From NCBI GenBank assembly GCA_016839805.1, contig JAEOTO010000009.1, positions 8,369 through 72,368 on the forward strand: DNA of 64,000 nt. Reading direction: 5' to 3'. Of this stretch, positions 5,323-55,171 are shown piece after piece (position 1 is the stretch's first letter; every line of letters begins with the position of its first letter). The DNA is from Candidatus Hermodarchaeota archaeon. Its GTDB lineage: Archaea > Asgardarchaeota > Hermodarchaeia > Hermodarchaeales > Hermodarchaeaceae. The position numbers and the translations under genes were made by a program. The notes below the pieces were generated by a model, which was not told the DNA's origin, made no database searches, and saw only the letters and a list, made by a program, of their open reading frames with translations.

Positions 5323-5344
5323 ACCCTACGGAGAGGAGCGCAAG

Positions 5345-9696: not shown

Positions 9697-9707
9697 CTTG
9701 CCAGAGG

Positions 9708-10367: not shown

Positions 10368-10461
10368 CAAATTAAACGAATACAGATTTTTTTGTTAAGC
10401 CGAATTGTGTGTGGTTGATGAAACACAATTAAGGTTTAATTTAATGAAGATGTGGCGGTTA

Positions 10462-21519: not shown

Positions 21520-22976
21520 AATCGAAAAAGCCCCTTCAAAGTAGCTAGAAATCCCTTCCGCATCATATGCCGGTAGTAAGTCCGTTTCACCTTATTCTTG
21601 GCAAGTACCCCAGATATCCGGCGTCGCCATCCATAATACGCCCGGTAAGTAGCATAAAGCTCAGTTTGCACCTCTTCACGTGTGAGGTGTTCCGTTGGCA
21701 TAATCGCATGAACCATATCGAATCTCTCCCATCGGGGATCCTCAATCCAGCCACTCGCTAAGGCTTCTTCATACTTCGGCGTACCGGGGTATGGTGTCAT
21801 CGTCATAAACACTGCAACATCAGGGTCAAGGTCATTAATCCATTTACGAAACGCTTCAATGGTTTCATGAGAATCTTGGCGGTGTCCGATAATCGCCGTT
21901 GTTTGGGCAAGAATCTCATTTTCCTTTAACAATTCAATGGCTTCCTTGCCCATCCCAACCTCAATGCCCTTCTGATATTTCTTAAGCATTTTCGGGTCAT
22001 GACTCTCTAATCCCGTCATTATCCACTGCATTCCAGTCTCTCGCAACTTTGGAAGTAAGGTTTTGCCAGCAATGATTTCATCTACCCGTGTCTGGAAAAA
22101 CCACATTAGATCCTCGGTAATCCCCCGCTCAAGTAACTCATCACACAAAGTTTCCATCCAGTTGTCCAATTGAATATAATCATCTGTAAGCCACAGAAAC
22201 CTACTGCCAAACTCCTGGTATATATATTCAAACTCGTCAGCAACGCGTTGTGGTGATTTTCTGCGGCACTTTCCCCAATACCGCCATTGAGTACAAAAGG
22301 AGCATGAATGGTTACATCCTCGTCCACCTTCTACCAAAGCATAGGGTAAATCCTTCCCTGCAGGGAACCGATAGTTCAACATATGCTCCCGCACAAAGTG
22401 ATAACCTGGAAAAGGAAGCGTGTTTAAGTCTTTAATTAAAGGACGGTTTGGCGTATATACAATCTTTCCATTATGGCGAAATGAAAGTCCCTTCACCCGT
22501 GTCAGCGAGCGCTTCGATTCCAAGGCTTGGATTAACTCCAAAAGCGTTTGTTCCCCTTCACCCCGGACAATAAAATCCAGTTGCGGAACCCCCGCCAAAA
22601 CCTCCTGAGCCAGCACCGAAAAATGCTGACTTCCCACAACCGTGAAAATTCGCTTATCAATCTCTTTAGCCAATACCACTGTCCGAAGCGTTATCTCAGC
22701 ATTACAAGACGAAACCGTGCTTGGAGCCACAAGATCCGGTTGAAACGCCATAATTTGCTTCTCGACATCATCCCACTCCGCTTCCTCTGCCTGACAATCC
22801 ATCACCTGAATTTCTATTTCAGGATCATGAGCTTCCAGATAGCTTGCCAAACACAACAACCCTAACGGTGGCGGAATATATTCACCCATCACAAACCAGG
22901 GCTGTTTCGGAGGCTCAACGAAGAGAATTTTCACGAATTCACATTCCAACCAAATCGTGAATGCGCTTTCCCCCAC
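21516..22976 (-). CDS. B12-binding-domain radical SAM protein (class B rSAM)
   Basis: 486 aa. N-terminal B12-binding-like Rossmann region (ILFVEPP..PDLVAPS..VVGSQH..DFIVRGEGE), then GGRGCNHSCSFCTQW (CxxxCxxC). Confidence 0.85.
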   Translation of the reverse strand: MGESAFTIWLECEFVKILFVEPPKQPWFVMGEYIPPPLGLLCLASYLEAHDPEIEIQVMDCQAEEAEWDDVEKQIMAFQPDLVAPSTVSSCNAEITLRTVVLAKEIDKRIFTVVGSQHFSVLAQEVLAGVPQLDFIVRGEGEQTLLELIQALESKRSLTRVKGLSFRHNGKIVYTPNRPLIKDLNTLPFPGYHFVREHMLNYRFPAGKDLPYALVEGGRGCNHSCSFCTQWRYWGKCRRKSPQRVADEFEYIYQEFGSRFLWLTDDYIQLDNWMETLCDELLERGITEDLMWFFQTRVDEIIAGKTLLPKLRETGMQWIMTGLESHDPKMLKKYQKGIEVGMGKEAIELLKENEILAQTTAIIGHRQDSHETIEAFRKWINDLDPDVAVFMTMTPYPGTPKYEEALASGWIEDPRWERFDMVHAIMPTEHLTREEVQTELYATYRAYYGWRRRISGVLAKNKVKRTYYRHMMRKGFLATLKGLFRF

Positions 22977-24192: not shown

Positions 24193-26103
24193 CTACTCTC
24201 GCTTCATCGGTCTTTTCATGGGAGAGTCTGCTGGATTCTTTGCCTCGGGAGAAGTTTTCGCCAATTCTTCTTGAGCACTTCTCAGGGCTTCTTCTGAGAT
24301 TTCTTCCGCTGTTTGGTGTGCATAGTAGGTATCATAAACAGCTTTGTACCGCCCACCTAGAGCTAATAGTTCCTCATGTGTCCCTTCTTCGACTATCTTG
24401 CCAAGGTCAAATACTAATACACGAGATGCGTTGGCGATTGTAGTTAGTCGGTGAGCGATCACGACCGTAGTTCGGTCCGAGAACAGTTTTTCTTGAGCTG
24501 CTTGAACCAGGGATTCTGAATAAGCATCCAACCGACTCGTCGCTTCATCGAGAATGAGGATTTTGGGGTTTGCCAGCATTGTCCGTGCTATTGAAATCAT
24601 TTGAACTTGTCCAGCACTTAGATTGCTTCCTCCTTCGACTAACATGGTATCGTATCCTTGAGGCAGAACCTCGATGAAATCATTCGCTCCAATTAAAGTG
24701 CTGAGACTAAGGATTTCGTCATCAGTTGCATCTGGTTTTCCGTAACGGATGTTTTCGAGGACGGTATCATCAAAAAGGTACGGTTCTTGCGCAATCAAGG
24801 CAACCATCTCATGAAGGGACTCAAGTGATATATCCCGGATATCTTGGTTCCCAATTAGAATCCGACCACTTTGTGGATCGTAAAACCGGTTTATGAGGGC
24901 TGCTACTGTGGTCTTACCAGCTCCGGTTGCACCCACAATTGCCACTAACTCTCCAGGATTGACTTTGAAATTTACTTCCTTGAGAACTTCAGTTTTCTCG
25001 ATATATGCAAAAGAGACGTTTTCAAAGGTAATTCCATCACTTGTTGGTTGAAGGGGAACTGCAGTTTCATTATCGATGATTGAGGGTTCAGCTTCTAATA
25101 TGTCCATTAAACGATCCATCGAAGCCGTAGACGCTTGGAACTGCGTTGCCATCATGCTCAGAGAAAGTAAGGGCCAAAGGAATCGTTGAATTAGAATTGT
25201 TCCCAGAAACACTTCACCAATTGTAAGTAAAGGTGCGGTCCCTGCGGCCAGACTACCTGCTACAAATAGGACTGCGGCTACGGCAGCGATCCCGGTTGCT
25301 CGGACGAGGGGCTGCATTAGTGTCATCAACATCATGAATCGAAATCCATGGCGATACGATTCCTGGTTTAATTCGCTTAACGTTGCAGCTGTTTCATCTT
25401 CGCGATTAAACGCTTTAGCAACATGAATGCCACTTAAGTTTTCAGCAATCTGTCCGGAAACATAACCGGTAGCGCGTTGTGCGGCTAACATGGTTCGCTG
25501 ACCGACGGTTCCGAAAAGAATGACAATAAGGATTACCACGGGAATTACAACTAAAGCCGTTAATGCGACTAATGGAGAGGTTAACCACATTAGACTAAAG
25601 GTTGCCAGCAGTAAGAGCATTTGACTAGCAAAATCAATGACGATCTGAATCCCTGCCGCGAGATTATCTGTATCGGTGGTGACTCGGGATGTGATATCGC
25701 CGCTTTGTTCTGAGGTATGATAAGACAGGTCGGCACCAACAAGTTTCTTATAGACGTCCTGTTGGAGAGATCGTACAAAACCAGCTTGAGCCCCTGATAA
25801 AATCCAAGTATTCAGTGATTGCAGAGTCCAACTTACCAGGCGAAGAATAACGTATAAGATGCCGAGATAGAAAATACCAAGCAATGTACTTCCTGGAAGT
25901 AGTACTAAGTTGATTCCCGTTGACAATACCAGAGGGTCAACGGCGCGAAAAATCGTGGCGATTACTGCTAAAACCGCTGCAACAACGATTAATTTTCTAA
26001 ATCGACCCAGATACCTAAACATGCTCCCTAGAAGAACACGTAATGGGCGGCTCCGTTTATGTTTGTCGCGAATCAATCCAGTGGGTCCACGGCGAACTGC
26101 CAT
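24193..26103 (-). CDS. ABC exporter, fused permease/ATPase (type I exporter half-transporter)
   Basis: 636 aa. Six-TM domain, Walker A GATGAGKTT, signature LSAGQVQ, Walker B ILILDEATS. Its start overlaps the upstream stop (TAATG). Confidence 0.9.
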   Translation of the reverse strand: MAVRRGPTGLIRDKHKRSRPLRVLLGSMFRYLGRFRKLIVVAAVLAVIATIFRAVDPLVLSTGINLVLLPGSTLLGIFYLGILYVILRLVSWTLQSLNTWILSGAQAGFVRSLQQDVYKKLVGADLSYHTSEQSGDITSRVTTDTDNLAAGIQIVIDFASQMLLLLATFSLMWLTSPLVALTALVVIPVVILIVILFGTVGQRTMLAAQRATGYVSGQIAENLSGIHVAKAFNREDETAATLSELNQESYRHGFRFMMLMTLMQPLVRATGIAAVAAVLFVAGSLAAGTAPLLTIGEVFLGTILIQRFLWPLLSLSMMATQFQASTASMDRLMDILEAEPSIIDNETAVPLQPTSDGITFENVSFAYIEKTEVLKEVNFKVNPGELVAIVGATGAGKTTVAALINRFYDPQSGRILIGNQDIRDISLESLHEMVALIAQEPYLFDDTVLENIRYGKPDATDDEILSLSTLIGANDFIEVLPQGYDTMLVEGGSNLSAGQVQMISIARTMLANPKILILDEATSRLDAYSESLVQAAQEKLFSDRTTVVIAHRLTTIANASRVLVFDLGKIVEEGTHEELLALGGRYKAVYDTYYAHQTAEEISEEALRSAQEELAKTSPEAKNPADSPMKRPMKRE

Positions 26104-27884
26104 TAATTGACTCCCTCCTTCTTAGATAGATTCTTGACATAGGGTAGGGCTCCTGGTAGTCTTTCAAAGATTCGTTGATAATGTTCGGAGGTTTGAAGCA
26201 GCTCATCATGAGTACCCTTTGCCACGAGGTGTCCCTTATCAACAATTACGATGAGGTCTGATTCAAGCAGTGTTCTAAGCCGTTGAGTGACAGTAATGCT
26301 TGTTCGATTTTTCATGACCTCGTCTAAGGCTTTTCGAAGTGAATATTCGGTTTGAGCATCAATGGCACTGACTGAGTCATCTAATAACAGAATCTTGGGG
26401 TCCTGCACAAGGGTTCGGGCAATCGCTAGACGTTGACGCTGCCCACCACTCAGGGTCATTCCCCGTTCTCCGATAATGGTGTCGTATCCTTGGGGTAATC
26501 TCTCAATGAACTCATGGGCCTGTGCCTTTTTCGCTGCATCCACAATTTCTTCTTCACACGCATCAACACATCCAAAGCCTATGTTATCATTGATGCTCAT
26601 TCGAAAGAGAAAAATATCCTGCTCAACTAGCCCAACAACTGCCCTGACATCACGAGTACAGACATTGTGAAGATCCACACCACCAATCAAAACACGGCCT
26701 TCTGTCGGATCATATAACCGTAAAAGAAGTTTCAAAATAGTGCTTTTTCCGCCGCCAGGACCACCGATAAGAGCGACACGCGAACCACTGGGAATGGTGA
26801 GATTAATGTTTTTCAAAGCGTAGGAATTTTCTTGTCCATTCTCAGTGAGATATTGGAAACTAACATTATCAAAAACGATGTCCCCAGTCCAATCCACTGT
26901 AGTGATGGGCTTCTCTGGTTCTTGAAGTGGATCTTGCCAATTGAGCACGTTGATGATTCGTTGGGCATTCACGTGTCCTCCACGAATCACTAAAAGAAAG
27001 CGTGGGAGCATAAAGCTGAAGGTATCAACTGCGCCGAGAAGGCCCAGGATTTGAACGAGGACACCAACGGTAAATACACCAAGTAGAACCTGATACGCAC
27101 CATAGAAAAACGCAGCGGTGGTAATTCCAGTTAAGATGAGTGCTGGGATGTAAAAGGCTGCAAGGCGGCCTTCTCGAGTGGTAAGCTGTTCATACTCTGC
27201 TGCTACATCGTTGAATTTTTCTTGTTCACGTTCTTCTGTTCCAAAGGCTCGGACTACCTCAATGCCTCGAAAAACTTCTTGGCTTACTGCCGTGATCCTT
27301 TCGTTTTGTTCAGATCGTGCACGACGAACCGGCTCAACCTTCACGGCATAACGATAGGCAAAGTAGAGGTATAGCGGAGCCCCAATTAACATGATAACTC
27401 CAAGCCACACATCAATTAGGGATAACAAGAACGCTGAAATGATTAGGGTTCCAATTGCTGTGATGATGTTTCTCAGAGCAGGATTAAGGGAGAACCGGAC
27501 CCATCGGACATCCTGCATAGCGACGGCTAGCAATAGTTTGCTATCAATCTGATCGTGGAATGTCATACTATTTTCCTGGACGAGTTCAAAGAATTCTTGC
27601 CTAGCATCACGTTCCCAGCGCAATGTGATTACGGCAAACGTATAACCCACTAGAAGAATCGTGATGAAGAGTGCAGCTGCTATTAGCAGAATAAGAAAAA
27701 CCTGGTTAATGAATGCCTGGGTGAAGCCCTGTGTCTCCAGTATATCAATGGCAACACCTAACACTAAGGCTGGTAATGTCGTCAGGTACGCACCAAGCAG
27801 GGCTAATCCTGTTGCAATAATGGTTACACCAGGATATCGCCGTAATGCGGCTAATTGATAACGTGATGCACTCTTGTACTTCAC
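26103..27884 (-). CDS. ABC exporter, fused permease/ATPase (partner half-transporter)
   Basis: 593 aa. Walker A GGPGGGKST, signature LSGGQRQRLAIAR, Walker B ILLLDDSVS. Confidence 0.9.
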   Translation of the reverse strand: MKYKSASRYQLAALRRYPGVTIIATGLALLGAYLTTLPALVLGVAIDILETQGFTQAFINQVFLILLIAAALFITILLVGYTFAVITLRWERDARQEFFELVQENSMTFHDQIDSKLLLAVAMQDVRWVRFSLNPALRNIITAIGTLIISAFLLSLIDVWLGVIMLIGAPLYLYFAYRYAVKVEPVRRARSEQNERITAVSQEVFRGIEVVRAFGTEEREQEKFNDVAAEYEQLTTREGRLAAFYIPALILTGITTAAFFYGAYQVLLGVFTVGVLVQILGLLGAVDTFSFMLPRFLLVIRGGHVNAQRIINVLNWQDPLQEPEKPITTVDWTGDIVFDNVSFQYLTENGQENSYALKNINLTIPSGSRVALIGGPGGGKSTILKLLLRLYDPTEGRVLIGGVDLHNVCTRDVRAVVGLVEQDIFLFRMSINDNIGFGCVDACEEEIVDAAKKAQAHEFIERLPQGYDTIIGERGMTLSGGQRQRLAIARTLVQDPKILLLDDSVSAIDAQTEYSLRKALDEVMKNRTSITVTQRLRTLLESDLIVIVDKGHLVAKGTHDELLQTSEHYQRIFERLPGALPYVKNLSKKEGVN

Positions 27885-30304: not shown

Positions 30305-31117
30305 ATGCCTCAACAACCCGTCGCCTATGATTTACATCTTCATACAGAATTCAGCCCCGACTCCACCACACCAATGGCTGTTTATGCCGAAGCTGCTAAC
30401 CAATTAGCTCTTCACATTGGATTTCTGGATCATTTTGAACTGGCGTTTCTCGACCGCACTGACTTCTTGAACTATGATATGGTTCCCCAGCTTCTTGAAG
30501 CATTTGACTGTGTACACACAGATTATCCTCAAACATCAATTGGGCTAGAAGTCGATTTCTATAGTGATTTGAAATCAAAAGTCGCAGAATTCTGTGATGA
30601 CTATCGCTCTGATTTTGATTATTTCATAGGTGTTGTTCACACTGTTGACCGGTATGCGGTAACGGTTCTTGAAGAAATGGAAAACCTCGTCGCACAATTA
30701 GGTCTCCGTGAAGTTCTTGAACGCTACTTCAATGAGGTGGAAGGTGCCATTCAATCACGCCTCTTTAGCGGCATTGCTCATATCGATAGTGTAATGCGTT
30801 TTGTCCCCCTTTTTCCTGGAAGTACAGAATTAACGTCCCTTTGGTACACTCGCACAAAGGAATTATGCGTACTTTGTCAGAAGTTAGGTGTGTTAATTGA
30901 AGTAAATTTACGTGGATTAAATCATCCTTGGAAACAAATTCATCCGGCACCTTCCCTGATTAATGAACTTATTCCAGGTAGAGCTAAATTCTACGTGGGA
31001 TCAGATAGTCACTCCTTAAGCGAGTTCCAAACAGCAATACCAACTCTTATGCAGATGCATGCGTTTCTGGTTGAGCACGATAGCCTTGGGCTTCCAGAGG
31101 CTTTGCAAATCGGCTAG
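30305..31117 (+). CDS. PHP-domain phosphoesterase (HisJ-type histidinol-phosphatase family)
   Basis: N-terminal YDLHLHTEFSPDS PHP motif and later GSDSH. ATG 30305 is preferred over TTG 30287. Confidence 0.7.
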   Translation: MPQQPVAYDLHLHTEFSPDSTTPMAVYAEAANQLALHIGFLDHFELAFLDRTDFLNYDMVPQLLEAFDCVHTDYPQTSIGLEVDFYSDLKSKVAEFCDDYRSDFDYFIGVVHTVDRYAVTVLEEMENLVAQLGLREVLERYFNEVEGAIQSRLFSGIAHIDSVMRFVPLFPGSTELTSLWYTRTKELCVLCQKLGVLIEVNLRGLNHPWKQIHPAPSLINELIPGRAKFYVGSDSHSLSEFQTAIPTLMQMHAFLVEHDSLGLPEALQIG

Positions 31118-31719
31118 ACCCGGAAAAGGAATTCCAGTAGGATAATGGCCACTGCTGTTGCTACTCCAGCTCCCAAAGTTTGGAGACCATAGAACCAAGG
31201 ATTCTGTTCTGAAACGCGTCCAAGGAAGATACCCAATAAGAATAGCAGGATAAAGCCGGTAATTGCTGATATGATTACAGCGAGTTCCCATGGAATAGGG
31301 ATTCCAACACCGATTACGAAGAATGGGACTAGAAGAATTAACCCCGCAATGAAAGGGGCAAAACCATCAACGAATGATGACACTATAATGGCAAAACGTG
31401 ATGCTTTCTTAACCACGGTATCATCCAATTTACGAAGCATAGCGCGTTCCATTTCACGAAATTCCCGCTCTCGTTCCGCCTTTTCAGCAAGATATGTCCC
31501 CGCTAATCCTGAAAACATCATAGCCAGACACGCACCAATGCCTGCTGTAACAATGGCTTGAGCATCAAAATGGGCAGCGAAATGTGACGCTAGAATAATT
31601 CCCAAAATGGTGAGTGTTCCATCAAACGCATTCATGGCAAAATACCGTCGGGCAATCGGTCCGAGTTCTGAGATCCGGGCTAGTTGTTCCATTTTTTCTA
31701 TTCGTGACATAATCATCAA
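31114..31719 (-). CDS. VIT1/CCC1-like membrane transporter (putative)
   Basis: 201 aa. RRYFAMNAFDGTLTILG near the N-terminus, a Glu-rich cytoplasmic helix (EKAEREREFREME) and about five TM helices. The family call is moderate. Confidence 0.5.
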   Translation of the reverse strand: MMIMSRIEKMEQLARISELGPIARRYFAMNAFDGTLTILGIILASHFAAHFDAQAIVTAGIGACLAMMFSGLAGTYLAEKAEREREFREMERAMLRKLDDTVVKKASRFAIIVSSFVDGFAPFIAGLILLVPFFVIGVGIPIPWELAVIISAITGFILLFLLGIFLGRVSEQNPWFYGLQTLGAGVATAVAIILLEFLFRV

Positions 31720-31876
31720 CAGCTGCTTTCATTCATTCGCAAGTGTACCCGAAAAGCCTTATGAATCCACTGCGAAGAAAGGCAAAATCTGAATTTCATG
31801 AAAAGCACTCACTCTTCGATAGACTTTTGTTGATGGTACGAAAAGAATGAGACAAGAGTAGCAAGGAGCGGTACGA

Positions 31877-33205
31877 ATGGAGTCCAAAAGTGATAAGATT
31901 ATCTTTGGAAAAGGTGAACTTGAAGGTCATCGGTTTCATCTTCGGAAAGATCCGAAGGGTGGCACAATTGTCATCGACGCCTCACGATTACTATTCTTGA
32001 ATGAAACCGGTTATGACTATGCAACTGCTGCAGTCGAAGGAAAATCTGAAGATGAGGTAATCGCACTCATTAAACAGAAATATCGGGGTGCAAAACCAGA
32101 TGCGATTCGTGCTGATTATGATGAATTAAAAGACAAAATATTGTCGTTCATTGCACAGCCGGATGTTTCTCCCATCGAAACTTTTGACTTTGGTGAAGTC
32201 GAACCTTTCTCCCATGACCCCCAAGCACCATATCGCATCGATCTAGCACTCACATATCGCTGTAATAACAATTGCTCACATTGTTATGTGCCCCCAGAAC
32301 GGCGTGGATGGGATGCTACCCGGGAAATGGATACTAGTAAATGGAAGCAAGTTCTTGACAAATTACTGGATTTGGCCATCCCTCATGTAACCTTCACAGG
32401 TGGTGAACCCACCCTTCGTGACGACCTAGTAGAGCTTATTCAGTACAGTGAAGACATCGGCATAATCGCAGGACTAGTGACAAATGGACGGCGCCTCACC
32501 CAATCTATGGTGGATGATTTGGTCAACGCTGGAATAGACTACGTTCAAATTACCTTGGAATCACATCTCCCAGACATTCATGATCAAATGGTAGGAATAA
32601 CGGGTGCTTGGAAGGAGACCATGGCTGGTTTGAAGCGATTCATCGCCACCGATATCTATACCATAACCAATACCACACTAACCCAGCTAAACCGATCAAC
32701 AATCACAGACACCGTCGCATTTCTCGCGAAATTAGGTCAAACTAATTTTGCTATGAACGGTCTCATCTACTCAGGAAGTGGTCGTGATGTGGCTGATAAA
32801 CAAGCGATTCCCGAGCAAGACCTTGACGAACTCATCACTGATATTCTCGCTGAAGCCAGTGAACATGATATGAGGCTTATCTGGTATTCACCCACCATGT
32901 ATTGTCATTTTGATCCAACAGAATATGGGCTAGGTCCACGACGTTGCAGTGCAGCCTACTCAAGCCTTGCTATTGAGCCTAATGGGAACGTCTTACCCTG
33001 TCAAAGCTACTTTGAATCATTAGGGAATATTCTCAAAAATTCTTGGGACACCATCTGGAACCATCCTACTGCCAAAGCGCTCCGTGGACATACCAAAGTC
33101 GCTGAGGAATGCCTTTCGTGTGAGCTCCTCAAGAAATGCGGTGGCGGCTGTCCCCTCTTCACAGAATACAAAGAGGTTTGTTGCCATCACAGTCTAGGCG
33201 GTTAA
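31877..33205 (+). CDS. Radical SAM/SPASM enzyme with an N-terminal PqqD-like (RRE) domain; putative peptide/protein maturase
   Basis: 442 aa, preceded by an AAGGAG SD. N-terminal ~100 aa (LLFLNETGYDYATAAVEGKSEDEVIALIKQKYRGAKPDAIRADYDELKDKILSFI) fits the PqqD/RRE pattern. rSAM motif CNNNCSHC. C-terminal Cys-rich SPASM region ending in CLSCELLKKCGGGCP. Confidence 0.8.
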   Translation: MESKSDKIIFGKGELEGHRFHLRKDPKGGTIVIDASRLLFLNETGYDYATAAVEGKSEDEVIALIKQKYRGAKPDAIRADYDELKDKILSFIAQPDVSPIETFDFGEVEPFSHDPQAPYRIDLALTYRCNNNCSHCYVPPERRGWDATREMDTSKWKQVLDKLLDLAIPHVTFTGGEPTLRDDLVELIQYSEDIGIIAGLVTNGRRLTQSMVDDLVNAGIDYVQITLESHLPDIHDQMVGITGAWKETMAGLKRFIATDIYTITNTTLTQLNRSTITDTVAFLAKLGQTNFAMNGLIYSGSGRDVADKQAIPEQDLDELITDILAEASEHDMRLIWYSPTMYCHFDPTEYGLGPRRCSAAYSSLAIEPNGNVLPCQSYFESLGNILKNSWDTIWNHPTAKALRGHTKVAEECLSCELLKKCGGGCPLFTEYKEVCCHHSLGG

Positions 33206-33255
33206 CATCTTATCAACTCTTCAAAAACAGAGCCCCTTATTGAGAGGGTCAAGCG

Positions 33256-33969
33256 GTGGAACTCTACACGACCCATTTTCTATGCAACCAAGCCCACCGT
33301 ACAGCTCCAACCCGACAATTCTTCTATACGCAAACAAACTGGAAAACAGCACCTATCAGCCTAGATTTAGGCTGTGGAACCGGAGTAATTACATCCGAAC
33401 TTACCTTCTCCCATGCCCAAGCAATTGGACTCGACATCAATCCCGACCTCCTGACTCAAGCAGTTATGGATAACCGTCCCAATAACTCCGTCCACCTCGT
33501 TCTTGCAGATGCTACTTCTCTACCTTTTCGATCATCTATTGTCTCCTTTGTACTAAGCCACTTCACTTTAATGTGGATTCACAACCGTGAAACTGCCCTT
33601 GCTGAATTAAAGCGAATCCTCCGACCCGGGAGCCTTCTTGCGGCAATTGAACCAGATTACACGGGTCGAATTGAAATCCCCAAAAACGCCGAATACACTT
33701 CTCACTCTCCCATCATCGATTATCTAATATTTCGAGGGGCTGACCCCTTCATTGGTGGGAAACTCCCTTTTGAACTTCAAAATTTTGACTTCACTGAAGT
33801 GCAGTTTGGGACATTATCTTGGGAATATCATCCCGAAGCCGCCCAAACAGAGATTCAAGATGAAGCTACCCTCCTGCAAGCTAAAGGGATTCACTGGAAA
33901 CAACCGGTTTTCACTTACACTCCAATTTTTTGGGTTATCGCATTCAAACGAGAAATTCGCTCAGAATAG
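33256..33969 (+). CDS. Class I SAM-dependent methyltransferase
   Basis: 237 aa with a GTG start. Motif I SLDLGCGTGVIT. Confidence 0.8.
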   Translation: MELYTTHFLCNQAHRTAPTRQFFYTQTNWKTAPISLDLGCGTGVITSELTFSHAQAIGLDINPDLLTQAVMDNRPNNSVHLVLADATSLPFRSSIVSFVLSHFTLMWIHNRETALAELKRILRPGSLLAAIEPDYTGRIEIPKNAEYTSHSPIIDYLIFRGADPFIGGKLPFELQNFDFTEVQFGTLSWEYHPEAAQTEIQDEATLLQAKGIHWKQPVFTYTPIFWVIAFKREIRSE

Positions 33970-34039
33970 ATTAACTTGGACTGGGAGAAAAAAGGAGACG
34001 AGAAGGGACGCCCCTAAGATTGGCTCCCTTCTACAATGG

Positions 34040-34471
34040 CTATGGACCGAAGAGCCAAATGAGCAATAAGACTATTACGAAGACAAGAATGAACGCTATA
34101 ATGATCATGAAGATGACGTACAGTAAGCCAACGGCGATAGCGCCGAGTATTCCGGTATCAAAGAAGTGCATAATTAGCCAGATGTAAAGAATGAAGACAA
34201 CAAGCAGTGGTATGGCTATCGCTAGAATTTGACCAATTAGTCCAGGTGGCAATAATGGTGCGACAAATGTATCTATGACCCAACCTAAGATTTCGTTGAG
34301 AATAGCGCCTAGGAGAGAGATCCAGAGTGCGTCCGTGAATTTGGCATTTTCAGGTCCTGCAACTACACGACCTGCGATCCAGAGAATCAGTGATCCTAAT
34401 AACCAGACGATGAGGAAGGGAATGATTACCAATACGATGAATTCTATAATTTGCATTACGAGTACTCCCAT
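34040..34471 (-). CDS. Small four-TM membrane protein (possibly DUF360/holin-4-like)
   Basis: 143 aa, extremely hydrophobic. The family resemblance is weak. Confidence 0.5.
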   Translation of the reverse strand: MGVLVMQIIEFIVLVIIPFLIVWLLGSLILWIAGRVVAGPENAKFTDALWISLLGAILNEILGWVIDTFVAPLLPPGLIGQILAIAIPLLVVFILYIWLIMHFFDTGILGAIAVGLLYVIFMIIIAFILVFVIVLLLIWLFGP

Positions 34472-34620
34472 ACTGGTTTGTTAGTGGGATGTCTGAGGAA
34501 TTCTATCCTTAATATGTTATGGGAGCATTGTTTTTGTAATCACATCTACTCAAAGAGGGTGTCCTGAAAAATCGGGGATTATGGATTATATTTTGGATAC
34601 GGCTTCAGACATTCTGCTTT

Positions 34621-34866
34621 TTAAAATGGAATGGGTACAAACAAGATGAACGAAAGCGTCGTCACAACGACGTCAATTATGAAGTAACATACCACAGCTA
34701 ACATTGTAAGGGCTAACGCACTAAAAATCCCCATCTTCTGGTATAAAACGAGCAAAGCCAGCAGCACAATCATCGCGACAATAAGGGCAATGAAATTTAC
34801 CGGAATTGGGATGCTGAAATACATAATCCACCAACTGATTTCTTTCATTACCACGCTAATAATCAC
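34621..34866 (-). CDS. Small membrane protein, hypothetical
   Basis: 81 aa with three hydrophobic helices. Confidence 0.4.
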   Translation of the reverse strand: MIISVVMKEISWWIMYFSIPIPVNFIALIVAMIVLLALLVLYQKMGIFSALALTMLAVVCYFIIDVVVTTLSFILFVPIPF

Positions 34867-35209
34867 AATAATGAATGCTTGTCTGAAAGTAAATCCTTCT
34901 TCAGTTACAATTGGCTAGCAAAATAAAACGCAACAAAAACAACAAGAAACGAGAGAAAAAATCGGGAAACTGCCTGAACTATCAATGGTAATAAGAATGG
35001 TTCAATTTGCAGGATGTAGTCGCCTTCAAAATATTCTGTAACGCATCAGTAGCTTACTCATCACCCATAAATTTTCTCTTAATCAGTGAAATCAAGTAGA
35101 TTTTCACAGTCGAAGTTAGGTATTGGGTTTGTTTACTTATCGTGTCGTGTGAGTTAGGTTTAAAGGGGCTAATCCAGGTCTGTGACTCATATAGTGGGGC
35201 GATGGTCCA

Positions 35210-36547
35210 ATGCCACATTTTCTCGATCTATTCCTTCAAGAGTTACAAGAAAAACGTGAAGCCTTCCGTCGGAGGTTAACAGGTGAAGAAGCCTCAGAAT
35301 TAGATGGTCTTTTGAAGAAGTCGTTTATCAAGGAATGGCGAGAATTGCCTTCACCTAAAACAGAAGACCTTCGTGTAATTGCCGTAGACAGTGGACGTTC
35401 CATGCGAGAATACGCTGCAGGCTCACTCATGTATATTTGTCGGGCTAGTGCATACACTTCGTGGGGAAAACAATATCGGCGAGTCGTTTCAAACGCGCAT
35501 ATGATTAGTTCTCCACGGGAACGCCTTATTGACCTTGTGAGTCTGCGATCAGAGCACTTAGAACACCAAGTGGCTCTTGAAGCAGTGCAGGCATCATCGG
35601 ATGTTGATTTGGTGTTACTTGATGGATCTTTGTATGGTCGGATTACGCATGTCCCAATCTCGTTCAATTATCCTGGAGAACGGGATTTGTATTTACGTTT
35701 CATGCAGACTTTTATTCGACTTCTTGAAGAATGTCGTAAACGGAAGATTCTGATATTAGGTATAAGCAAGGATTCGGTGGCTCGGCATCTTACACGCCTG
35801 CTCTTGGAAACAGTCAAGGTTCAAGTATTGCAGAGCTTCAAGCAGATGCTTTCTTCCTCCGATTTCGAACAATTACACGAATATCTTGAAACCGAGGAGA
35901 AACAATCGGTTTCTGCTATTCGATTTCTACGGGATTTATCACTTAGCGACAACCAAGAACAATTGTTATGGGATTTACTCTATGAGCTGCGACGCCCACG
36001 ACCTGACTTTGCCCTAATTCAGGCCTGGACTGAAACTGCGGGGTATACAACACCAATTGAACCCTATCCAGATGTGCCACTGTTCAAATATGAGTCAAAA
36101 GATCCCGCTGATTATGTTCGACGACGGTTTGTAAACGCCTACAAAGATTATCAGCAAGAGGAAGATTTTGAGAACTGGGCGATTCCAGTGATGCGGGGTA
36201 CTTTCGAGCTCCCCACCTTCGTGACGTTTTGTGCAAAACTTGCACATAATGATACCCCGATGCGTATTGATATGCCTGCCTTTAATACAGGTTTACCAAC
36301 CCGTATTTCACAGATTTCTGCGGCTCGAATGCTCGATCCAACTCCTCAGCGGGTAATAGAGGTCTTACAGCTGCTTCAAGGGGAATATGGTGGACCTGAA
36401 CTCTACAACGTCTTTCTGGTCCGTGCAGACCAAGAAGCAAGATTACCTATGAGCGATGTGACAACCCTTTATGAACCATTGGTAGAAAAGGAATTGAAAA
36501 TACCCCTAGTACCTAAACGTCGAGACAGGAGGATACGATATGTCTAA
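35210..36547 (+). CDS. nurA: NurA 5'-3' nuclease
   Basis: 445 aa. NurA-type acidic motifs VIAVDSGRS and LVLLDGSLYG. Operon partner of herA, with which it overlaps by 8 nt. Confidence 0.85.
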   Translation: MPHFLDLFLQELQEKREAFRRRLTGEEASELDGLLKKSFIKEWRELPSPKTEDLRVIAVDSGRSMREYAAGSLMYICRASAYTSWGKQYRRVVSNAHMISSPRERLIDLVSLRSEHLEHQVALEAVQASSDVDLVLLDGSLYGRITHVPISFNYPGERDLYLRFMQTFIRLLEECRKRKILILGISKDSVARHLTRLLLETVKVQVLQSFKQMLSSSDFEQLHEYLETEEKQSVSAIRFLRDLSLSDNQEQLLWDLLYELRRPRPDFALIQAWTETAGYTTPIEPYPDVPLFKYESKDPADYVRRRFVNAYKDYQQEEDFENWAIPVMRGTFELPTFVTFCAKLAHNDTPMRIDMPAFNTGLPTRISQISAARMLDPTPQRVIEVLQLLQGEYGGPELYNVFLVRADQEARLPMSDVTTLYEPLVEKELKIPLVPKRRDRRIRYV

Positions 36548-38171
36548 AACCCAACAAGATGAGCCAGTAGGATTCATTGTTGAAGAAGCCCGAGCTACAG
36601 AATTCATATTTGCTAGTGACCGAAAACGGTATCCAGCGAAATTCGAATATCTCACCGTAAACTCAGAAGAATTGGTAGATAGGACACTCAAACCCGTCGA
36701 AGTTCTTGCTCAGGTTGAACGGATCACTTCCCAAAGCCTTGCCCTTCGTCGCAGTCTGGACATTGAAGCAATCTATCGGATTAAGGAAGCAGGAATTGAT
36801 GATGTCAAAACCTGGGGAATTGCACGGGTCCTAGGCTATCTAGTTCCTACAACCAAAGGACAACCTCCACGAATTCTCCTTCCTCGCCGCGCAGTGACTC
36901 CAGGAAACGCGATTTATATTGCACCAGATAGTCTTCTTGCCAAATTCTATGCCTATCCAAAAGAAGAGAGTCTTTATGTTGGAAATCTAATTTCTCGACC
37001 TCAGATTCCCGTGCATTTACGCATTAACGGCTTTCGACGGCATGTCGCCATTCTAGCCCAAACGGGTGCTGGTAAAAGCTATCTTACAGGTGTATTAATC
37101 GAAGAACTCATGGATCGGGGAGCCACTGTAATTATCATCGACCCTCATGCTGATTACGTATTCTTAAGTCAAAGTCTCAAAGGCGACAAACATGGTTTCT
37201 CAGACCGTGTAACTGTGTTCCAAAATCCCGAAAGCACCGGTCGATATAGCAAGAAAGATATCGGTGGAGTAGAATCCTATACCGTTCGATTAGCTGATCT
37301 TGACTTCGACGAATTATGCGGAATCTGCGGCATTGGCGAAAAGTATACCAATATCCGGGCAGGTTTAGCGACGGCTCTAAAACAACTCCAAGAAAGAAAT
37401 GTCGTCTATCTAACTGAGGATATCGAAAAGGAACTGAACACAGTAGCCAATACTGAGGATTTAGATAAATCCATCCGCTTCGGTGCTCTCAACGCAACAA
37501 AATATGTTAGACGCCTTCACCGCCTTCGCGTCTTCTCGCGCAGCGGCGTACCTATAGAGAAAATCATCAAACCCTATCATTCGTCGATTATCGATTTATC
37601 CGGACTTGGCAATCGCAGCACAGATTACATCGTCAGTCGGCTGCTAAAAGATGTGTTTGAAGCTGTGGCCACCGATGCCTTTGCATATCCCGTTTTTGTA
37701 GTCGTAGAGGAGGCACACACCTTTGTCCCCCCTGAATTCCCCACCTATTCTGCGAATATTATTCGACGAATTGCTCAAGAAGGACGAAAATTCGGTGTCT
37801 TCCTTCTCCTAATTAGTCAACGACCTGGGCGAATTCATCCAGATAGTCTTAGCCAATGTAATAGTCAGATCGTCCTCAAAATTACTAATCCTCGTGACCA
37901 AAACGCCATTGCTCAATCATCTGAACGGTTAAGTGAGGACCTTATCTCCGATCTACCCGGCTTAAATGTGGGCGAAGCTGTTGTAGTCGGTGATATTACT
38001 CGGACACCTGTGATGATTAAGGTTCGACCCCGTAATACGCGAGAGGGCGGTGCTGATATTGACGTCGTCGCTCGGCTCAAACAAGCCCGAAAAGCTGCAG
38101 GAATTGATGCCCAACTCGTTCAGGAACGTAAGCAAGAAAAGAAATTGAAGGGAGCGTTCTCTGAGGTGTAA
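36540..38171 (+). CDS. herA: HerA hexameric DNA helicase/translocase (FtsK-HerA superfamily)
   Basis: 543 aa. Walker A AQTGAGKSY, Walker B VFVVVEEAH, SD GGAGGA upstream. Confidence 0.9.
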   Translation: MSKTQQDEPVGFIVEEARATEFIFASDRKRYPAKFEYLTVNSEELVDRTLKPVEVLAQVERITSQSLALRRSLDIEAIYRIKEAGIDDVKTWGIARVLGYLVPTTKGQPPRILLPRRAVTPGNAIYIAPDSLLAKFYAYPKEESLYVGNLISRPQIPVHLRINGFRRHVAILAQTGAGKSYLTGVLIEELMDRGATVIIIDPHADYVFLSQSLKGDKHGFSDRVTVFQNPESTGRYSKKDIGGVESYTVRLADLDFDELCGICGIGEKYTNIRAGLATALKQLQERNVVYLTEDIEKELNTVANTEDLDKSIRFGALNATKYVRRLHRLRVFSRSGVPIEKIIKPYHSSIIDLSGLGNRSTDYIVSRLLKDVFEAVATDAFAYPVFVVVEEAHTFVPPEFPTYSANIIRRIAQEGRKFGVFLLLISQRPGRIHPDSLSQCNSQIVLKITNPRDQNAIAQSSERLSEDLISDLPGLNVGEAVVVGDITRTPVMIKVRPRNTREGGADIDVVARLKQARKAAGIDAQLVQERKQEKKLKGAFSEV

Positions 38172-38176
38172 ACACC

Positions 38177-39340
38177 GTGCCGATTACTATTCTTCACACC
38201 TCAGATTCACATTTAGATATTCCTGCCATTAAATTTGGTTCTCGGCGCTATGAACGAAAGAATGATTTTCTCAAATCCTTTGATACCATAGTTTCAACCG
38301 CTTTAGAAAAGAAACCCGATCTTTTTCTCCATTCTGGCGACCTTTTTGACGGACTGAATCCGCGAAATCCGGTTCGAGCCCGAGTCATGGAAGCCTTTAG
38401 AAAACTACACGAGAAACAGATTCCCATTTACATTATCAGCGGAAACCATGATGTTCCTCGGGCGCGTCGTCATGGAGTAGCCCCCCTATTAGAATACGCC
38501 CGTACAGGCTTTGTCAACTTTTTTCCTGAATGGGAAACAATACAATCTAGCACCATCAATTTGCATGACCTTGAAGTTGAAATCTCAGGAATTTCTTTTA
38601 ATCCCACATTAGGACCTTCAGAAGATCCCCTTCATCAATTATCCATTCCGGGAAAAGGTGATGTTAACATCCTTCTAGCCCACTATAATGTAGAAGGACT
38701 TCGTGGAACCTTTCCCTATGAACCCGATATCCTACTCAAGTCAATACCCAAGAATCTGACATATCTTGCTGCAGGTCACAACCACGAATATCAAAAGCAA
38801 CAAGTTGGAAACACAACAATCTGTACTCCCGGAAGCACAGAGCACGTAACCTTTTCTGAGGAATCTCAAAAGAAGGGTTTTGTCTGGTTAGAAATCGACA
38901 CACATGCCGTACAAAAACTCCAATTCTTCCCCATTGAAACCCGCCCAATGCAAACACAGGATGTCACGATTCCCGCTGATGTTAATATCAATCAAATGCT
39001 TATCAAAGAAATCGATCGTCTGCGAAATCCCCAGCTTATCCTCCGGTTTCGTCTTCAGGGTGTCATGACGATTAAATCAGCTGAACAGTATCGTCGAACT
39101 GAAGTCGTACGGCATGGGTTTGCGAAATGCTTCTCCACTGAAATCGTGGACGAACTCGAATACATCAGCCCCGATCCAGATTTTCTTACTCCTGAAACTG
39201 AATTGAAACCACCAATCACCGAATATCGTGATTATGTTAATGCGAGAGTAAAACAAGAGAAAGACCTAGAAAAGAAGGCATTACTCCAAAAAGCATTAGA
39301 TCGCGGGCTAGCTCTTTTAGAAGACTCAGGAGGTTGGTAG
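38177..39340 (+). CDS. mre11: Mre11 nuclease
   Basis: 387 aa with a GTG start. All phosphoesterase motifs are present: HTSDSHLD, GDLFD, GNHD, LLAH, GHNHE. Confidence 0.9.
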   Translation: MPITILHTSDSHLDIPAIKFGSRRYERKNDFLKSFDTIVSTALEKKPDLFLHSGDLFDGLNPRNPVRARVMEAFRKLHEKQIPIYIISGNHDVPRARRHGVAPLLEYARTGFVNFFPEWETIQSSTINLHDLEVEISGISFNPTLGPSEDPLHQLSIPGKGDVNILLAHYNVEGLRGTFPYEPDILLKSIPKNLTYLAAGHNHEYQKQQVGNTTICTPGSTEHVTFSEESQKKGFVWLEIDTHAVQKLQFFPIETRPMQTQDVTIPADVNINQMLIKEIDRLRNPQLILRFRLQGVMTIKSAEQYRRTEVVRHGFAKCFSTEIVDELEYISPDPDFLTPETELKPPITEYRDYVNARVKQEKDLEKKALLQKALDRGLALLEDSGGW

Positions 39341-39344
39341 GGGA

Positions 39345-41711
39345 ATGGTCGTTTTACAGCAACTAGTGGCTCGAGATTTCAAGCACTTAGATCTTGATAT
39401 CAACTTTCCTCAAGGCATCCTCGCGATTAGTGGTCCAAATGAATCCGGAAAATCTTCAATCTTTGAAGCAATACTCTTTGCCTTCTTCGGACGGACCCAT
39501 AAAGCACCCTTGGGACAAAAAGACCGCCTCATCAATTACGATGCGGATAAACTATTCGTACGTTTATTCTTTGAAGTTGAAGGTACCCAATACCGAATTA
39601 CTCGACAAATCCATCGAAAACGTCCCAGTACTGCCCAACTCCACAAAATCGCTCGATCTGGACAAGCTTCTCTTCTAGCAACAGGGGTCAAAAATGTCGA
39701 AGCTGAAGTGAGCACTCTACTTAATGGAGTGGATCTGAATGACCTACTGGCAAGCAATATCGTACTTCAGAAAGATTTAGACCGTCTGGCACAAATGCCG
39801 AAAATGGACCGTCGACACGTTATCAATGCAATGATGGGACGCGAGTGCTTTTCACGCGCTGATAATAAACTAGCAACTGAACTCCGACCCTTAAGAAATG
39901 CCCTCAAACCAACAGGAGAAACTCTCAAAGAGCTGCGGTTCCGTAAAGACGCGTACCTAGAACAGACTCAGGAATTAGAAGCAAAGCAAAAAACTTTGAC
40001 TCAAATTGAGGGTCAATTAAAAGAAATTAATCAAACATTTGCTCAAAGTGAGAAGAAATACAAGGCTGTCAAGGCTTACAAGATAGCAAAAGATGAACAA
40101 AAGGATTTAGAGCGTGAAATTAAGTTCCGACTAGAAACTCAGGACCGCTTGGAAAAGCAATTAGCGAATTTGGATAAACTTCAGAGGCAACAAAAGAAAC
40201 TCCGTGGGCAAGCGAAACAGCTTGACTATCTTCAAGATGATATGACCATCTTTGAACAATTGCAAGACGCATCTGAAAAGCTCAAAGCTACTGTAGACGA
40301 ACTACAAATGACGACCGAAGTTATTTCATCACTTGAAGGCCAAGTGGGCGAGTTAAGTACACTGCAAGACGTTGTAACAGAGTATGAACAAATTAAGAAT
40401 CAGCGAATCAGTATCGAAGTCAGCCAAAACCAGATTCTCTCACCTCTCCTTTACATTCCTTCGATTGGACTTCTTGCCGCTGGAATTATGGCACTCTTCT
40501 TCAATCTAATCGTAGGGATAGTTTTTCTCCTAGCATCCATTCCCTTTGTAGCTTATCTCATCAAGAATTATTTCAATTATAGTCGCCTTGCAGCCAAACT
40601 AGATCAGATGCGAAGAAAAGAAGAGGAACTGAGTGAACAGGTAGCAAAGTACCGGACCAAAGAAACTTTTGAAGAACAACTTCAAGACCGCCTCAACCGA
40701 GATAAAGAACTAACCAACCAAATCACGCAGCTCTCAACACAAGTTCAGAGTCAACTCAAAAACCTCTCAACGACATTATTAGAAGGGGTAAAACCACCAA
40801 AGGACTCTGACGCACACACTCTGCGAGACACTGTAAGAACCGTAGAACAAAGACTTTTGGAACTTCAAGCAAGTCAGAAATCAGTTACTGACCAGTTACA
40901 ATCAATTGAGGGACAATTAGCAGATCTTCGTGAAGCAAAAGCAGATCTTACACGAATTGTGAAAGAAATTACTACCCTACGAGAACAACTTTCTTCAATG
41001 ACTCTTCCCCCACTTCCCGAAGAAATTGCCGAGTATACCGAAGCGTTGTATGAGCAGCTCGACCAGCAAATCAAGACAATGGGTGAAGAAAAAGCGACTA
41101 TACAAGAGAGTCGGAGAAATACTGTTCAGCGTATTAATGAACTTTCAGTTCTTCTAAAAGAGAACGAAGGAGTTCTAGACGAATTCACAAATAAAGAACG
41201 GGAATTTTTCCAGCTTGATCAGAATATAAAATCTGGTGAACTCACGATTGAATTAATACGTGAGGTCGCGGAACAAGGTCGTGAACAAGTACGTCCACGC
41301 GTTGTACATGTCATGGAACGTATATTGGCAACGATTACTGATGGAAAATACCGGTTTCCTAAGCTAAGTGAAGACTATAGCCTTAAGGTCTATTCGGCAA
41401 CAGCTGGTGAATATGTACAAGCAACACTCTACAGCGGAGGAACCGAAGATCAATTCCTCCTAGCTCTCCGTCTTGGATTTGCTATTGCATTGCTTCCCCA
41501 AGGCCGTGGTGCGACGCCCCAATTCCTTCTACTCGATGAACCCTTCGGAGGTTCTGATATTCAACGCAGGGATAATATTATTCGTCTACTGAAAGATGAA
41601 TTATCTCGCACCTTTCAACAAATTATTGTCGTGAGTCATCAGTCGGCTGTCCTCTCAGCTTCTGAACATCAATTTCGAATGATCAATGGACGAATTATTC
41701 ATTCGGATTAG
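39345..41711 (+). CDS. rad50: Rad50-family SMC-like ATPase lacking the zinc hook; hydrophobic hairpin at the coiled-coil apex
   Basis: 788 aa. Walker A GPNESGKSS, signature YSGGTEDQ, Walker B/D-loop LLLDEPFGGSD, H-loop VVSHQ, and long heptad-rich arms. Residues 364-406 are ILSPLLYIPSIGLLAAGIMALFFNLIVGIVFLLASIPFVAYLI. The whole protein has one Cys. Confidence 0.85.
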   Translation: MVVLQQLVARDFKHLDLDINFPQGILAISGPNESGKSSIFEAILFAFFGRTHKAPLGQKDRLINYDADKLFVRLFFEVEGTQYRITRQIHRKRPSTAQLHKIARSGQASLLATGVKNVEAEVSTLLNGVDLNDLLASNIVLQKDLDRLAQMPKMDRRHVINAMMGRECFSRADNKLATELRPLRNALKPTGETLKELRFRKDAYLEQTQELEAKQKTLTQIEGQLKEINQTFAQSEKKYKAVKAYKIAKDEQKDLEREIKFRLETQDRLEKQLANLDKLQRQQKKLRGQAKQLDYLQDDMTIFEQLQDASEKLKATVDELQMTTEVISSLEGQVGELSTLQDVVTEYEQIKNQRISIEVSQNQILSPLLYIPSIGLLAAGIMALFFNLIVGIVFLLASIPFVAYLIKNYFNYSRLAAKLDQMRRKEEELSEQVAKYRTKETFEEQLQDRLNRDKELTNQITQLSTQVQSQLKNLSTTLLEGVKPPKDSDAHTLRDTVRTVEQRLLELQASQKSVTDQLQSIEGQLADLREAKADLTRIVKEITTLREQLSSMTLPPLPEEIAEYTEALYEQLDQQIKTMGEEKATIQESRRNTVQRINELSVLLKENEGVLDEFTNKEREFFQLDQNIKSGELTIELIREVAEQGREQVRPRVVHVMERILATITDGKYRFPKLSEDYSLKVYSATAGEYVQATLYSGGTEDQFLLALRLGFAIALLPQGRGATPQFLLLDEPFGGSDIQRRDNIIRLLKDELSRTFQQIIVVSHQSAVLSASEHQFRMINGRIIHSD

Positions 41712-55097: not shown

Positions 55098-55171
55098 CGG
55101 GCCCTCAGCGATTTGAACGCGGGACCTCCAGATTCGGAGTCTGGCGCCATATCCAACTAGGCCAAGGGCCC
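55098..55171 (-). tRNA. tRNA-Arg (anticodon CCG)
   Basis: Hand-folded cloverleaf. Acceptor GGGCCCT/AGGGCCC, anticodon arm CCAGA-CTCCGAA-TCTGG, T-arm CCGCG-TTCAAAT-CGCTG (one C:U mismatch at 50:64), discriminator G. No encoded CCA. Confidence 0.85.

Follow-up and report, generated by a model that had tools for sequence, protein, structure and literature searches.

A proposed split maturation system for Cys-Ala-tailed membrane proteins, viewed from a radical SAM/SPASM enzyme and methyltransferase pair of a Hermodarchaeota archaeon

Sactisynthases of the SkfB/AlbA type are radical S-adenosylmethionine (rSAM) enzymes with a SPASM region, and they form thioethers between the sulfur of Cys residues and C-alpha carbons. 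Other rSAM/SPASM enzymes that act on Cys-rich cores are CteB, PapB and QhpD, the last of which forms thioethers in the gamma subunit of QHNDH, and anSME generates formylglycine in sulfatases. What QhpD and anSME have in common is that they act on Cys residues of a protein or subunit that stays functional, and not on an exported natural product. rSAM/SPASM enzymes that also contain a recognition element (RRE) for peptides made by the ribosome and modified after translation (RiPPs) are commonly searched for in genomes as indicators of small, secreted RiPPs. In this work, we describe an RRE-rSAM-SPASM enzyme encoded together with a class I SAM methyltransferase (MT) on a stretch of 64,000 nucleotides of DNA from a Candidatus Hermodarchaeota archaeon (contig JAEOTO010000009.1), the whole of which we refer to as the window. 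What is conserved as a partner in the family of this enzyme is a large membrane protein that stays in the cell, more precisely its tail.

An earlier note on the window, made from its letters only, had described the pair as an orphan RiPP-like module. The part of this description that holds is that the pair is a maturase without a local precursor; rather than a one-off cluster with a hidden small peptide, it represents the enzyme half of a conserved four-gene system found across domains of life. Our favoured reading, held with moderate confidence, is that a Cys-Ala-tail system has been split and that the rSAM-MT pair is its maturase half, acting in trans; this confidence also covers the presence of an unlinked tail gene in the genome. 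The substrate is probably the Cys-Ala tail at the C-terminus of a ~550-aa membrane protein that would be encoded elsewhere in the genome, because a close relative carries a stand-alone tail locus. Among the substrate options that the note had listed, a protein and a gene located elsewhere are the ones now favoured; the option of a small local open reading frame (ORF) is extremely unlikely, since none in the spacers is conserved across the clade.

Architecture and closest relatives of the enzyme

Comparison of the window enzyme with Pfam detected a Radical_SAM domain (PF04055; E 6e-25, residues 125-283) and a SPASM domain (PF13186; E 3e-11, residues 357-416); the coordinates of all features are collected in Table 1. 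The N-terminal region matched PqqD at residues 37-84 with 18.6 bits (E 0.0025), which is under the gathering score of 23.4 bits. PqqD is matched by 14 of 20 full-length family members (best E 8e-8), and two nearly full-length homologues exceed the gathering score. In the AlphaFold2 model of the enzyme (pLDDT 78, pTM 0.82), strands at residues 8-42 are followed by three helices at residues 43-93, and Foldseek comparisons showed that the model agrees with rSAM folds. The best match for the whole model was SkfB (6efn; E 4e-20, 426 columns), followed by SuiB (5v1s/5v1t; E ~1e-17, 431-448 columns) and PqqE, and a sequence search of the PDB gave PqqE (6c8v; E 9e-24) as the best hit, with SkfB at E 6e-20. 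Despite the sub-threshold PqqD score, the call that the N-terminal domain is an RRE is sound, given the PqqD matches of homologues, the topology of the model and its alignment with SkfB and SuiB over the full length.

The three-part RRE/rSAM/SPASM architecture that the earlier note had read from the sequence was therefore recovered by Pfam, the AlphaFold2 model and Foldseek, and the N-terminal domain, on whose PqqD likeness that description depended, is indeed RRE-like. The note had also taken the enzyme for a peptide maturase, a reading that agrees with the nearest structures in the PDB: SkfB, SuiB and PqqE are all RRE-dependent peptide maturases. The three Cys residues of the rSAM motif and the seven of the SPASM region are invariant in 87 of 87 family members; the seven SPASM Cys residues are enough for two auxiliary [4Fe-4S] clusters.

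SkfB and AlbA, and also CteB of the SCIFF peptides, have the same N-terminal RRE, CX3CX2C core and SPASM region with two auxiliary clusters, and their substrates are Cys-rich. Whereas the SkfB/AlbA systems act on a short leader-core peptide, the substrate presumed here is a membrane protein of ~550 aa, at its C-terminal tail; moreover, the window system has a methyltransferase partner and neither a protease nor an exporter, and the scores of the enzyme are far under the cut-offs. The RRE/rSAM/SPASM fold of SuiB, which cyclizes streptide through Lys and Trp, aligns over the full length at only 17-18% identity, but its type of substrate is different and no Lys/Trp motif is present in the system described here. 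PqqE is the closest PDB entry by sequence; a PqqD-type RRE is fused to the window enzyme, and no pqqA-D genes are present. anSME lacks an RRE, in contrast to the window enzyme, and its match (4k37) is weak (E 2e-4) and limited to the SPASM region; neither sulfatase nor qhp genes are located near the window pair. In the ACGX-repeat system (TIGR04340), GeoRSP and SynChlorMet, an rSAM/SPASM enzyme is likewise paired with a substrate containing a short-period Cys repeat, but by score the window enzyme is not a member of any of these, and the repeat in question is of the (Cys-Ala)n type and forms the end of a large membrane protein. We regard the system as a variant of the RRE-rSAM-SPASM maturase theme; what is surprising about it is the family of Cys-Ala-tailed proteins.

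None of the curated cut-offs of the NCBIfam equivalogs was reached by the window enzyme. The scores, in bits and followed by the cut-off, were 135/381 for PqqE (TIGR02109), 138/500 for AhbD (TIGR04545), 136/500 for NirJ2, 108/265 for MftC, 98/300 for SkfB and 70/850 for AlbA, the model of which aligned over residues 37-423; for rSAM_ACGX (TIGR04340), GeoRSP and SynChlorMet, all with a cut-off of 400, they were 74, 119 and 96, respectively. The top scores, at ~135 bits, are thus those of AhbD, NirJ2 and PqqE, and they are what speaks for an enzyme of cofactor or tetrapyrrole maturation similar to AhbD, NirJ, PqqE or MftC. We consider such a role very improbable, because these scores are far under the 381-500-bit cut-offs, the AhbD and NirJ models align to the rSAM core only, an RRE is present, and no haem, PQQ or mycofactocin genes are found in ~90 neighbourhoods. 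Sulfatase genes are also absent from the family neighbourhoods; hence, none of the links to cofactor, haem or sulfatase maturation that the earlier note had named as conceivable for the orthologues was seen there.

A Cys-Ala-tail membrane protein encoded beside most enzymes of the family

The window enzyme shares 44-68% identity with members of the tail-linked rSAM family over at least 93% of the length. Full-length homologues at 44-51% identity are present in Heimdall-, Hod-, Loki-, Hel- and Sigynarchaeota, Korarchaeota, Bathyarchaeia and Nanoarchaeia, and, among the bacteria, in Chloroflexi, Planctomycetota, Actinomycetota, Cloacimonadota and delta-proteobacteria. The gene neighbourhoods of the family were analyzed at 80 genome loci, 58 of which fall outside the window clade (see below) and have at least 1.9 kb of upstream sequence. 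At 51 of these 58 loci, the gene directly upstream of the rSAM gene, ending within ~100 nt of its start, encodes what we call the tail protein. Preceding the tail gene, 40 of those loci contain a gene for a ~120-aa protein with two transmembrane (TM) helices and a Zn-ribbon, named ZnR-TM here. An MT of the same blast homology cluster as the window MT is encoded downstream at 37 of the 58 distant loci with at least 3 kb of downstream sequence and at 11 of 11 clade loci. The window MT, which the earlier note had placed 50 nt downstream of the rSAM gene and assigned to class I, is confirmed by ORF calling and by its Pfam match (Methyltransf_11, E 6e-21); it is 36% identical to the MT of locus L089 and 30-36% identical to the bacterial and Heimdall MTs.

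The usual order of the operon is ZnR-TM, tail protein, rSAM, sometimes a second rSAM, and MT. The second rSAM, a shorter paralogue of ~385 aa, is encoded between the RRE-rSAM and the MT at 19 Chloroflexi loci. No conserved protease or exporter was found in the family neighbourhoods, which fits a modified resident protein better than a secreted peptide.

As a separate observation, the members of a subclade of Anaerolineae rSAM enzymes (loci L028, L036, L074 and L084) lack an adjacent tail gene and have kept the MT downstream. Instead of the tail gene, one to three tandem genes for secreted or membrane proteins of 246 aa are located upstream of their rSAM gene. This subclade is an independent case of uncoupling from the tail gene.

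The tail protein is a single-pass, type-I-like membrane protein of ~520-620 aa that ends in ...CACACACA[G/S/VS]CACACAGGGR. In the first two distant loci, the upstream genes encode proteins of 543 and 549 aa without a Pfam domain that end in GGGGGCACACACAGCACACAGGGR and GGGGGGCACACACACACAGGGR, respectively; the Heimdall tail proteins end in CACACACACACAGGGR, and those of Bathyarchaeia in CVCACAxCACACACVSCACACAHGGAR. The family comprises 466 clusters at 50% identity when a threshold of E<=1e-30 is applied, and 948 at E<=1e-10. A Cys-Ala tail is present in 133 of 141 newly fetched representatives, 131 times in the two-block form and twice in a short form; the remaining eight have no tail at their end and resemble fragments. 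There is no Pfam or NCBIfam model for the family, and every source labels its members as hypothetical. The N- and C-domains of DUF2207 were each weakly matched by 3 of 52 members, all under the gathering scores.

The anatomy of the tail protein was derived from an AlphaFold2 model (pLDDT 80) of P0163, the tail protein of locus L088. In this model, an N-terminal helix (residues 3-26) is followed by a beta-sandwich ectodomain (47-233; pLDDT >95), a TM helix (256-282) with a Lys/Arg-rich stretch behind it, a helical domain (312-471), and two conserved amphipathic helices (510-543) that carry the family-wide motif 'FAN..V.GF'. The C-terminus is formed by a disordered Pro-rich linker, which in the family is a Pro/Gly/Ser linker, and then the Cys-Ala tail. 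Because the Lys/Arg-rich stretch follows the TM helix, the C-terminal half is predicted to be cytoplasmic, and the tail would then be reachable by the cytoplasmic rSAM and MT. Foldseek matched the P0163 model best to ribophorin I/Ost1 of the eukaryotic oligosaccharyltransferase (8b6l_O, 8pn9_E and 6s7o_E; E 1e-9 to 1e-10 over 454-463 columns) with TM-scores of only ~0.24, and the N-domains of M1 aminopeptidases score similarly. The tail protein has no sequence match to the Pfam family Ribophorin_I, and with such TM-scores the likeness to ribophorin I/Ost1 is a lead at the level of the fold only. DUF2207 proteins have a similar layout of ectodomain, TM helix and cytoplasmic part; the Cys-Ala tail and the linkage to an rSAM are specific to the tail-protein family.

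Few features of the system are as conserved as the tail (CACACACA-x-CACACAGGGR), and this conservation implies that it has a specific role, be it structural, redox or metal-binding. That a near-invariant Cys-Ala tail has been kept from Chloroflexi to Asgard archaea, in at least 466 clusters, points to a protein-maturation system. A literature search on CACACA or Cys-Ala repeats, DUF2207, and Asgard RiPPs with radical SAM returned nothing relevant, and no description of the rSAM-MT-tail-protein system was found in the literature that was searched, nor is there a Pfam or NCBIfam model for it. We give about even chances to the wider proposal that this is an ancient system of post-translational modification, for which we found no description, present in Asgard archaea, other archaea and several bacterial phyla, that modifies the tail (plausibly with a ladder of Cys-Ala thioethers and methylation) of the cytoplasmic C-terminus of a ribophorin-I/DUF2207-like membrane protein, and that became unlinked in the lineage of the window.

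In its complete form, the system is a four- or five-gene operon encoding ZnR-TM, the tail protein, the RRE-rSAM-SPASM enzyme, in some Chloroflexi the second rSAM, and the MT. The RRE would dock on the conserved 'FAN..V.GF' helix or on the linker just upstream of the tail, and the substrate region is predicted to comprise the ~90 C-terminal residues of the tail protein. The rSAM/SPASM enzyme might then abstract hydrogen from Ala or Gly carbons, after which thioethers would be formed with neighbouring Cys thiols with the assistance of the auxiliary clusters. Multiple thioether cross-links from Cys sulfur to Ala (or Gly) carbons would be the likeliest products, comparable to those of sacti- and ranthipeptide synthases, and the MT would then methylate a remaining thiol, amine or terminal carboxylate. 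The thioether part of this scheme is tentative and is drawn by analogy with the rSAM/SPASM enzymes that act on Cys-rich cores. In the lineage of the window, the operon would have been split, with the genes for the rSAM and MT staying together beside the NurA-HerA-Mre11-Rad50 operon and their products acting in trans.

The window clade and stand-alone tail loci

The window clade comprises 12 loci: the window itself, 10 others, and the contig that encodes the clade rSAM P0008. The rSAM enzymes of this clade are 75-98% identical to the window enzyme and are labelled Thor-, Hod- or Hermodarchaeota, or 'Promethearchaeota'; together with the neighbouring genes, these matches assign the window to an Asgard archaeon. 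In 11 clade loci and the P0008 contig, the genes are arranged in the order VIT1(-), rSAM, MT, a gene for a membrane protein of 139-144 aa(-), and NurA; a PHP gene precedes VIT1 in 9 of 11 clade loci, and a PHP phosphatase gene is also located upstream of the window rSAM.

The closest relatives outside the clade are linked to tail genes. Thus, locus L089 (68% identity) encodes a ZnR-TM of 126 aa, a 582-aa tail protein ending in SCACACACVSCACACAGGGR, the rSAM and a 234-aa MT; locus L088 of Ranarchaeia (65%) a 131-aa ZnR-TM, a 578-aa tail protein and the rSAM; and locus L086 of Korarchaeota (56%) a ZnR-TM, a tail protein and the rSAM. In loci L085 and L087 (57-59%), one or two tail genes (two in L085) and the gene for a second rSAM of the family are found within a few kb of the rSAM gene. 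A neighbor-joining tree, obtained by a rough method and containing long branches, placed the window clade inside an archaeal subclade of which the other members are tail-linked.

No local precursor was found. A six-frame regular-expression search for Cys-X repeats revealed no Cys-Ala-type ORF in the window or the 10 clade loci; a hidden Markov model (HMM) built from 59 tail proteins gave no match among the ORFs of the window and the clade; and when Zn-ribbon and tail proteins from loci L088, L089, L090, L091 and L107 were compared with the window by tblastn, no match was obtained. Likewise, no adjacent gene for a precursor peptide, as present with RRE-dependent RiPP maturases, was found in the window or clade loci. 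These six-frame, HMM and small-ORF scans agree with the earlier note, in which no precursor could be seen. ORFs of 10-54 codons do exist in the flanking spacers, as would be required if this were a RiPP cluster of the classical kind in which the small ORF for the precursor had escaped annotation. However, when ORFs of at least 10 codons in 31700-31900, 33950-34060 and 34450-35230 were compared, none was conserved across the clade, and none of the spacer ORFs is Cys-rich or contains a leader-like motif; with a large protein as the family-wide partner, this makes a classical cluster extremely unlikely. The tail-protein system may instead account for one class of 'orphan' rSAM/SPASM genes, those without a local precursor.

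Compared with other members of the clade, the window rSAM shows 75-88% identity and a dN of 0.08-0.17 with saturated dS, while in the same comparisons the MT shows 50-56% and the 143-aa neighbour 36-64% identity, so the rSAM is far better kept. The RRE is 71-91% identical within the clade and 62-65% identical to the RRE of the tail-linked loci L088 and L089, the same level as the catalytic core; this is expected for an RRE that continues to bind a partner of the same type. On these comparisons, the window rSAM enzyme is intact and strongly constrained. The local absence of the partner genes would suit a decaying remnant of a lost system, but the ORFs are intact in 12 diverged genomes, the low dN is found against saturated dS, and the catalytic Cys residues are all kept, and we therefore rate decay as extremely unlikely as well.

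Stand-alone tail loci are present in relatives. Locus L091 contains genes for topoisomerase IB, pyrF(-), ZnR-TM, a second Zn-ribbon protein and two tail proteins, and no family rSAM is encoded within 6 kb downstream; the left-hand synteny of L090 is the same, and the topoisomerase IB/pyrF synteny is shared by the stand-alone Asgard tail loci. Locus L107, on a 63-kb contig, contains pyrF(-), ZnR-TM, a Zn-ribbon gene and the gene for a 588-aa tail protein ending in SCACACACVSCACACAGGGR, with no family rSAM in the 10 kb downstream of the latter. A block ~4.5 kb away from this tail locus shows partial synteny, with some rearrangement, to the left end of the window. The M20 peptidase of L107 is 82% identical (77% at the nucleotide level) to that of the window, and the small rSAM, GH39 and MT are 75%, 61% and 56% identical, respectively. 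The synteny with L107 gives a context for where the substrate gene of the window organism may be located.

Some further observations were made on these loci. An additional soluble Zn-ribbon protein of ~112-124 aa with a double CxxC is encoded between ZnR-TM and the tail protein in L090, L091 and L107. In the window, two paralogous genes for M20-type amidohydrolases flank a block holding the small rSAM, an NAD-epimerase-like ORF (recognised by reading only), GH39 and a second class I MT (TehB/Methyltransf_25-like). This MT gene follows an ORF for a 197-aa protein without a Pfam domain that is 68% identical to the product of the gene two ORFs downstream of the L091 tail proteins.

Several points weigh against the pair being the detached half of a Cys-Ala-tail system. 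The tail protein, any homologue of its body and the Zn-ribbon partner are all absent from the 64-kb window, the 10 clade loci and the P0008 contig, and at 7 of the 58 loci, all bacterial, there is no adjacent tail gene, which means that the linkage is strong and not absolute. The 63-kb contig of L107 apparently has no family rSAM (none is among the family rSAM matches), and no genome was seen to hold both an unlinked tail locus and an rSAM-MT pair on its own. By their NCBI accessions, the Hodarchaeota tail protein P0239 and the clade rSAM P0007 come from different metagenome-assembled genomes, and the clade rSAM P0008 and the split tail loci carry different JGI sample ids. A metagenome scan for the tail gene detected only 15 loci, which are distant and of bacterial type. 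In chemical terms, the Cys-Ala tail could instead serve to bind a metal or cluster, and the enzyme could catalyse epimerisation or Cys oxidation rather than cross-linking.

Two other explanations have to be considered together with these points. After unlinking, the pair could have gained a different substrate; candidates would be another protein, a small peptide encoded at a distance, or a small molecule. The lack of tail and Zn-ribbon genes at 12 of 12 clade loci, the distinct branch of the clade and an MT that evolves much faster than the rSAM (50-56% versus 75-88% identity) are in line with such neo-functionalisation. We nevertheless regard it as unlikely, although deserving some weight, because the RRE and all cluster ligands are conserved as in the tail-linked outgroups, the stand-alone tail loci of relatives would need a trans-acting maturase, and no other conserved Cys-rich candidate is present nearby. 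It is also conceivable that a complete operon with its own rSAM is located elsewhere in the genome, and that the window pair is an accessory maturase adding modifications to the same tail. The two family rSAMs near the tail proteins of L085 and L087 and the second rSAM at 19 Chloroflexi loci show that such an arrangement has parallels. This explanation is improbable, given that no rSAM is seen downstream of the tail genes of L091 (6 kb) and L107 (10 kb) and that no second paralogue from a window-clade genome is among the close Asgard matches.

Genes around the pair and other features of the window

The coordinates of the pair, its domains, the surrounding genes and the related loci are given in Table 1. 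Shine-Dalgarno-like sequences precede both the rSAM and the MT genes.

Table 1. Features of the window and of related loci. Coordinates without a locus prefix are positions in the window.
Feature	Coordinates	Strand	Remarks
RRE-rSAM-SPASM enzyme, 442 aa	31877-33205	+	ATG start; AAGGAG 9 nt upstream; intact ORF
N-terminal PqqD-like RRE, residues ~8-93	31898-32155	+	3-4 beta strands, then 3 helices
CX3CX2C rSAM cluster motif, C129/C133/C136	32261-32284	+	invariant alignment columns
SPASM region	32903-33154	+	seven invariant Cys: C343, C357, C375, C412, C415, C421, C425
Class I SAM methyltransferase, 237 aa	33256-33969	+	GTG start; 50-nt gap after rSAM; orthologous to the MT of canonical operons
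Polytopic membrane protein, 143 aa	34040-34471	-	four TM helices; convergent with MT
Hydrophobic ORF, 81 aa	34621-34866	-	reality and relevance doubtful
VIT1-family gene	31114-31719	-	divergent, upstream of rSAM
NurA-HerA-Mre11-Rad50 operon	35210-41711		downstream of the pair
ABC exporter half-transporters, tandem pair	24193-27884	-	~4 kb upstream of the pair
B12-binding radical SAM enzyme	21516-22976	-	not conserved with the rSAM family
Molybdopterin oxidoreductase	17732-19723	-	not conserved with the rSAM family
Block with M20 peptidase, small rSAM, GH39 and MT	1400-10367		partly syntenic with L107, with rearrangement
M20-type amidohydrolase (M20 peptidase)	1400-2767	-	
M20-type amidohydrolase, paralogue	10405-11919	+	
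Small rSAM	4096-4893		
GH39	7316-8923		
197-aa protein	9103-9696	+	
Second class I MT	9708-10367		
tRNA gene	55098-55171	-	
tRNA gene	57133-57206	+	
Tail-protein genes	L002:6327-7958; L003:6355-8004; L089:1132-2880; L088:1868-3604; L107:3479-5245		~55 further loci
Additional Zn-ribbon protein	L090:5636-5974; L091:5457-5831; L107:3090-3458		
Second rSAM, Chloroflexi	L033:11305-12459		also in L034, L049, L051, L052, L054, L060, L062, L064, L067-L070, L076, L078-L082
246-aa secreted/membrane protein, Anaerolineae	L036:8944-9684		

The two hydrophobic proteins that the earlier note had pointed out beyond the MT gene are present at that place, but they are not part of the conserved system. The gene for the 143-aa membrane protein is kept at the same position in 11 of 11 window-clade loci; the protein contains no Cys, canonical operons are without it, and it gave a weak, sub-threshold match to Phage_holin_4_2. 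It is probably a neighbour by descent and not a component of the system. The 81-aa ORF has weak matches in only two clade loci. Both were considered as substrates and rejected, because they lack Cys and are missing from the canonical operons. The tandem pair of ABC exporter half-transporters was likewise rejected as part of the system, since unrelated genes intervene and the pair is not conserved with the rSAM family.

Apart from the two tRNA genes, the window gave no Rfam match. The window sequence is also present in a marine sediment metagenome (run X1).

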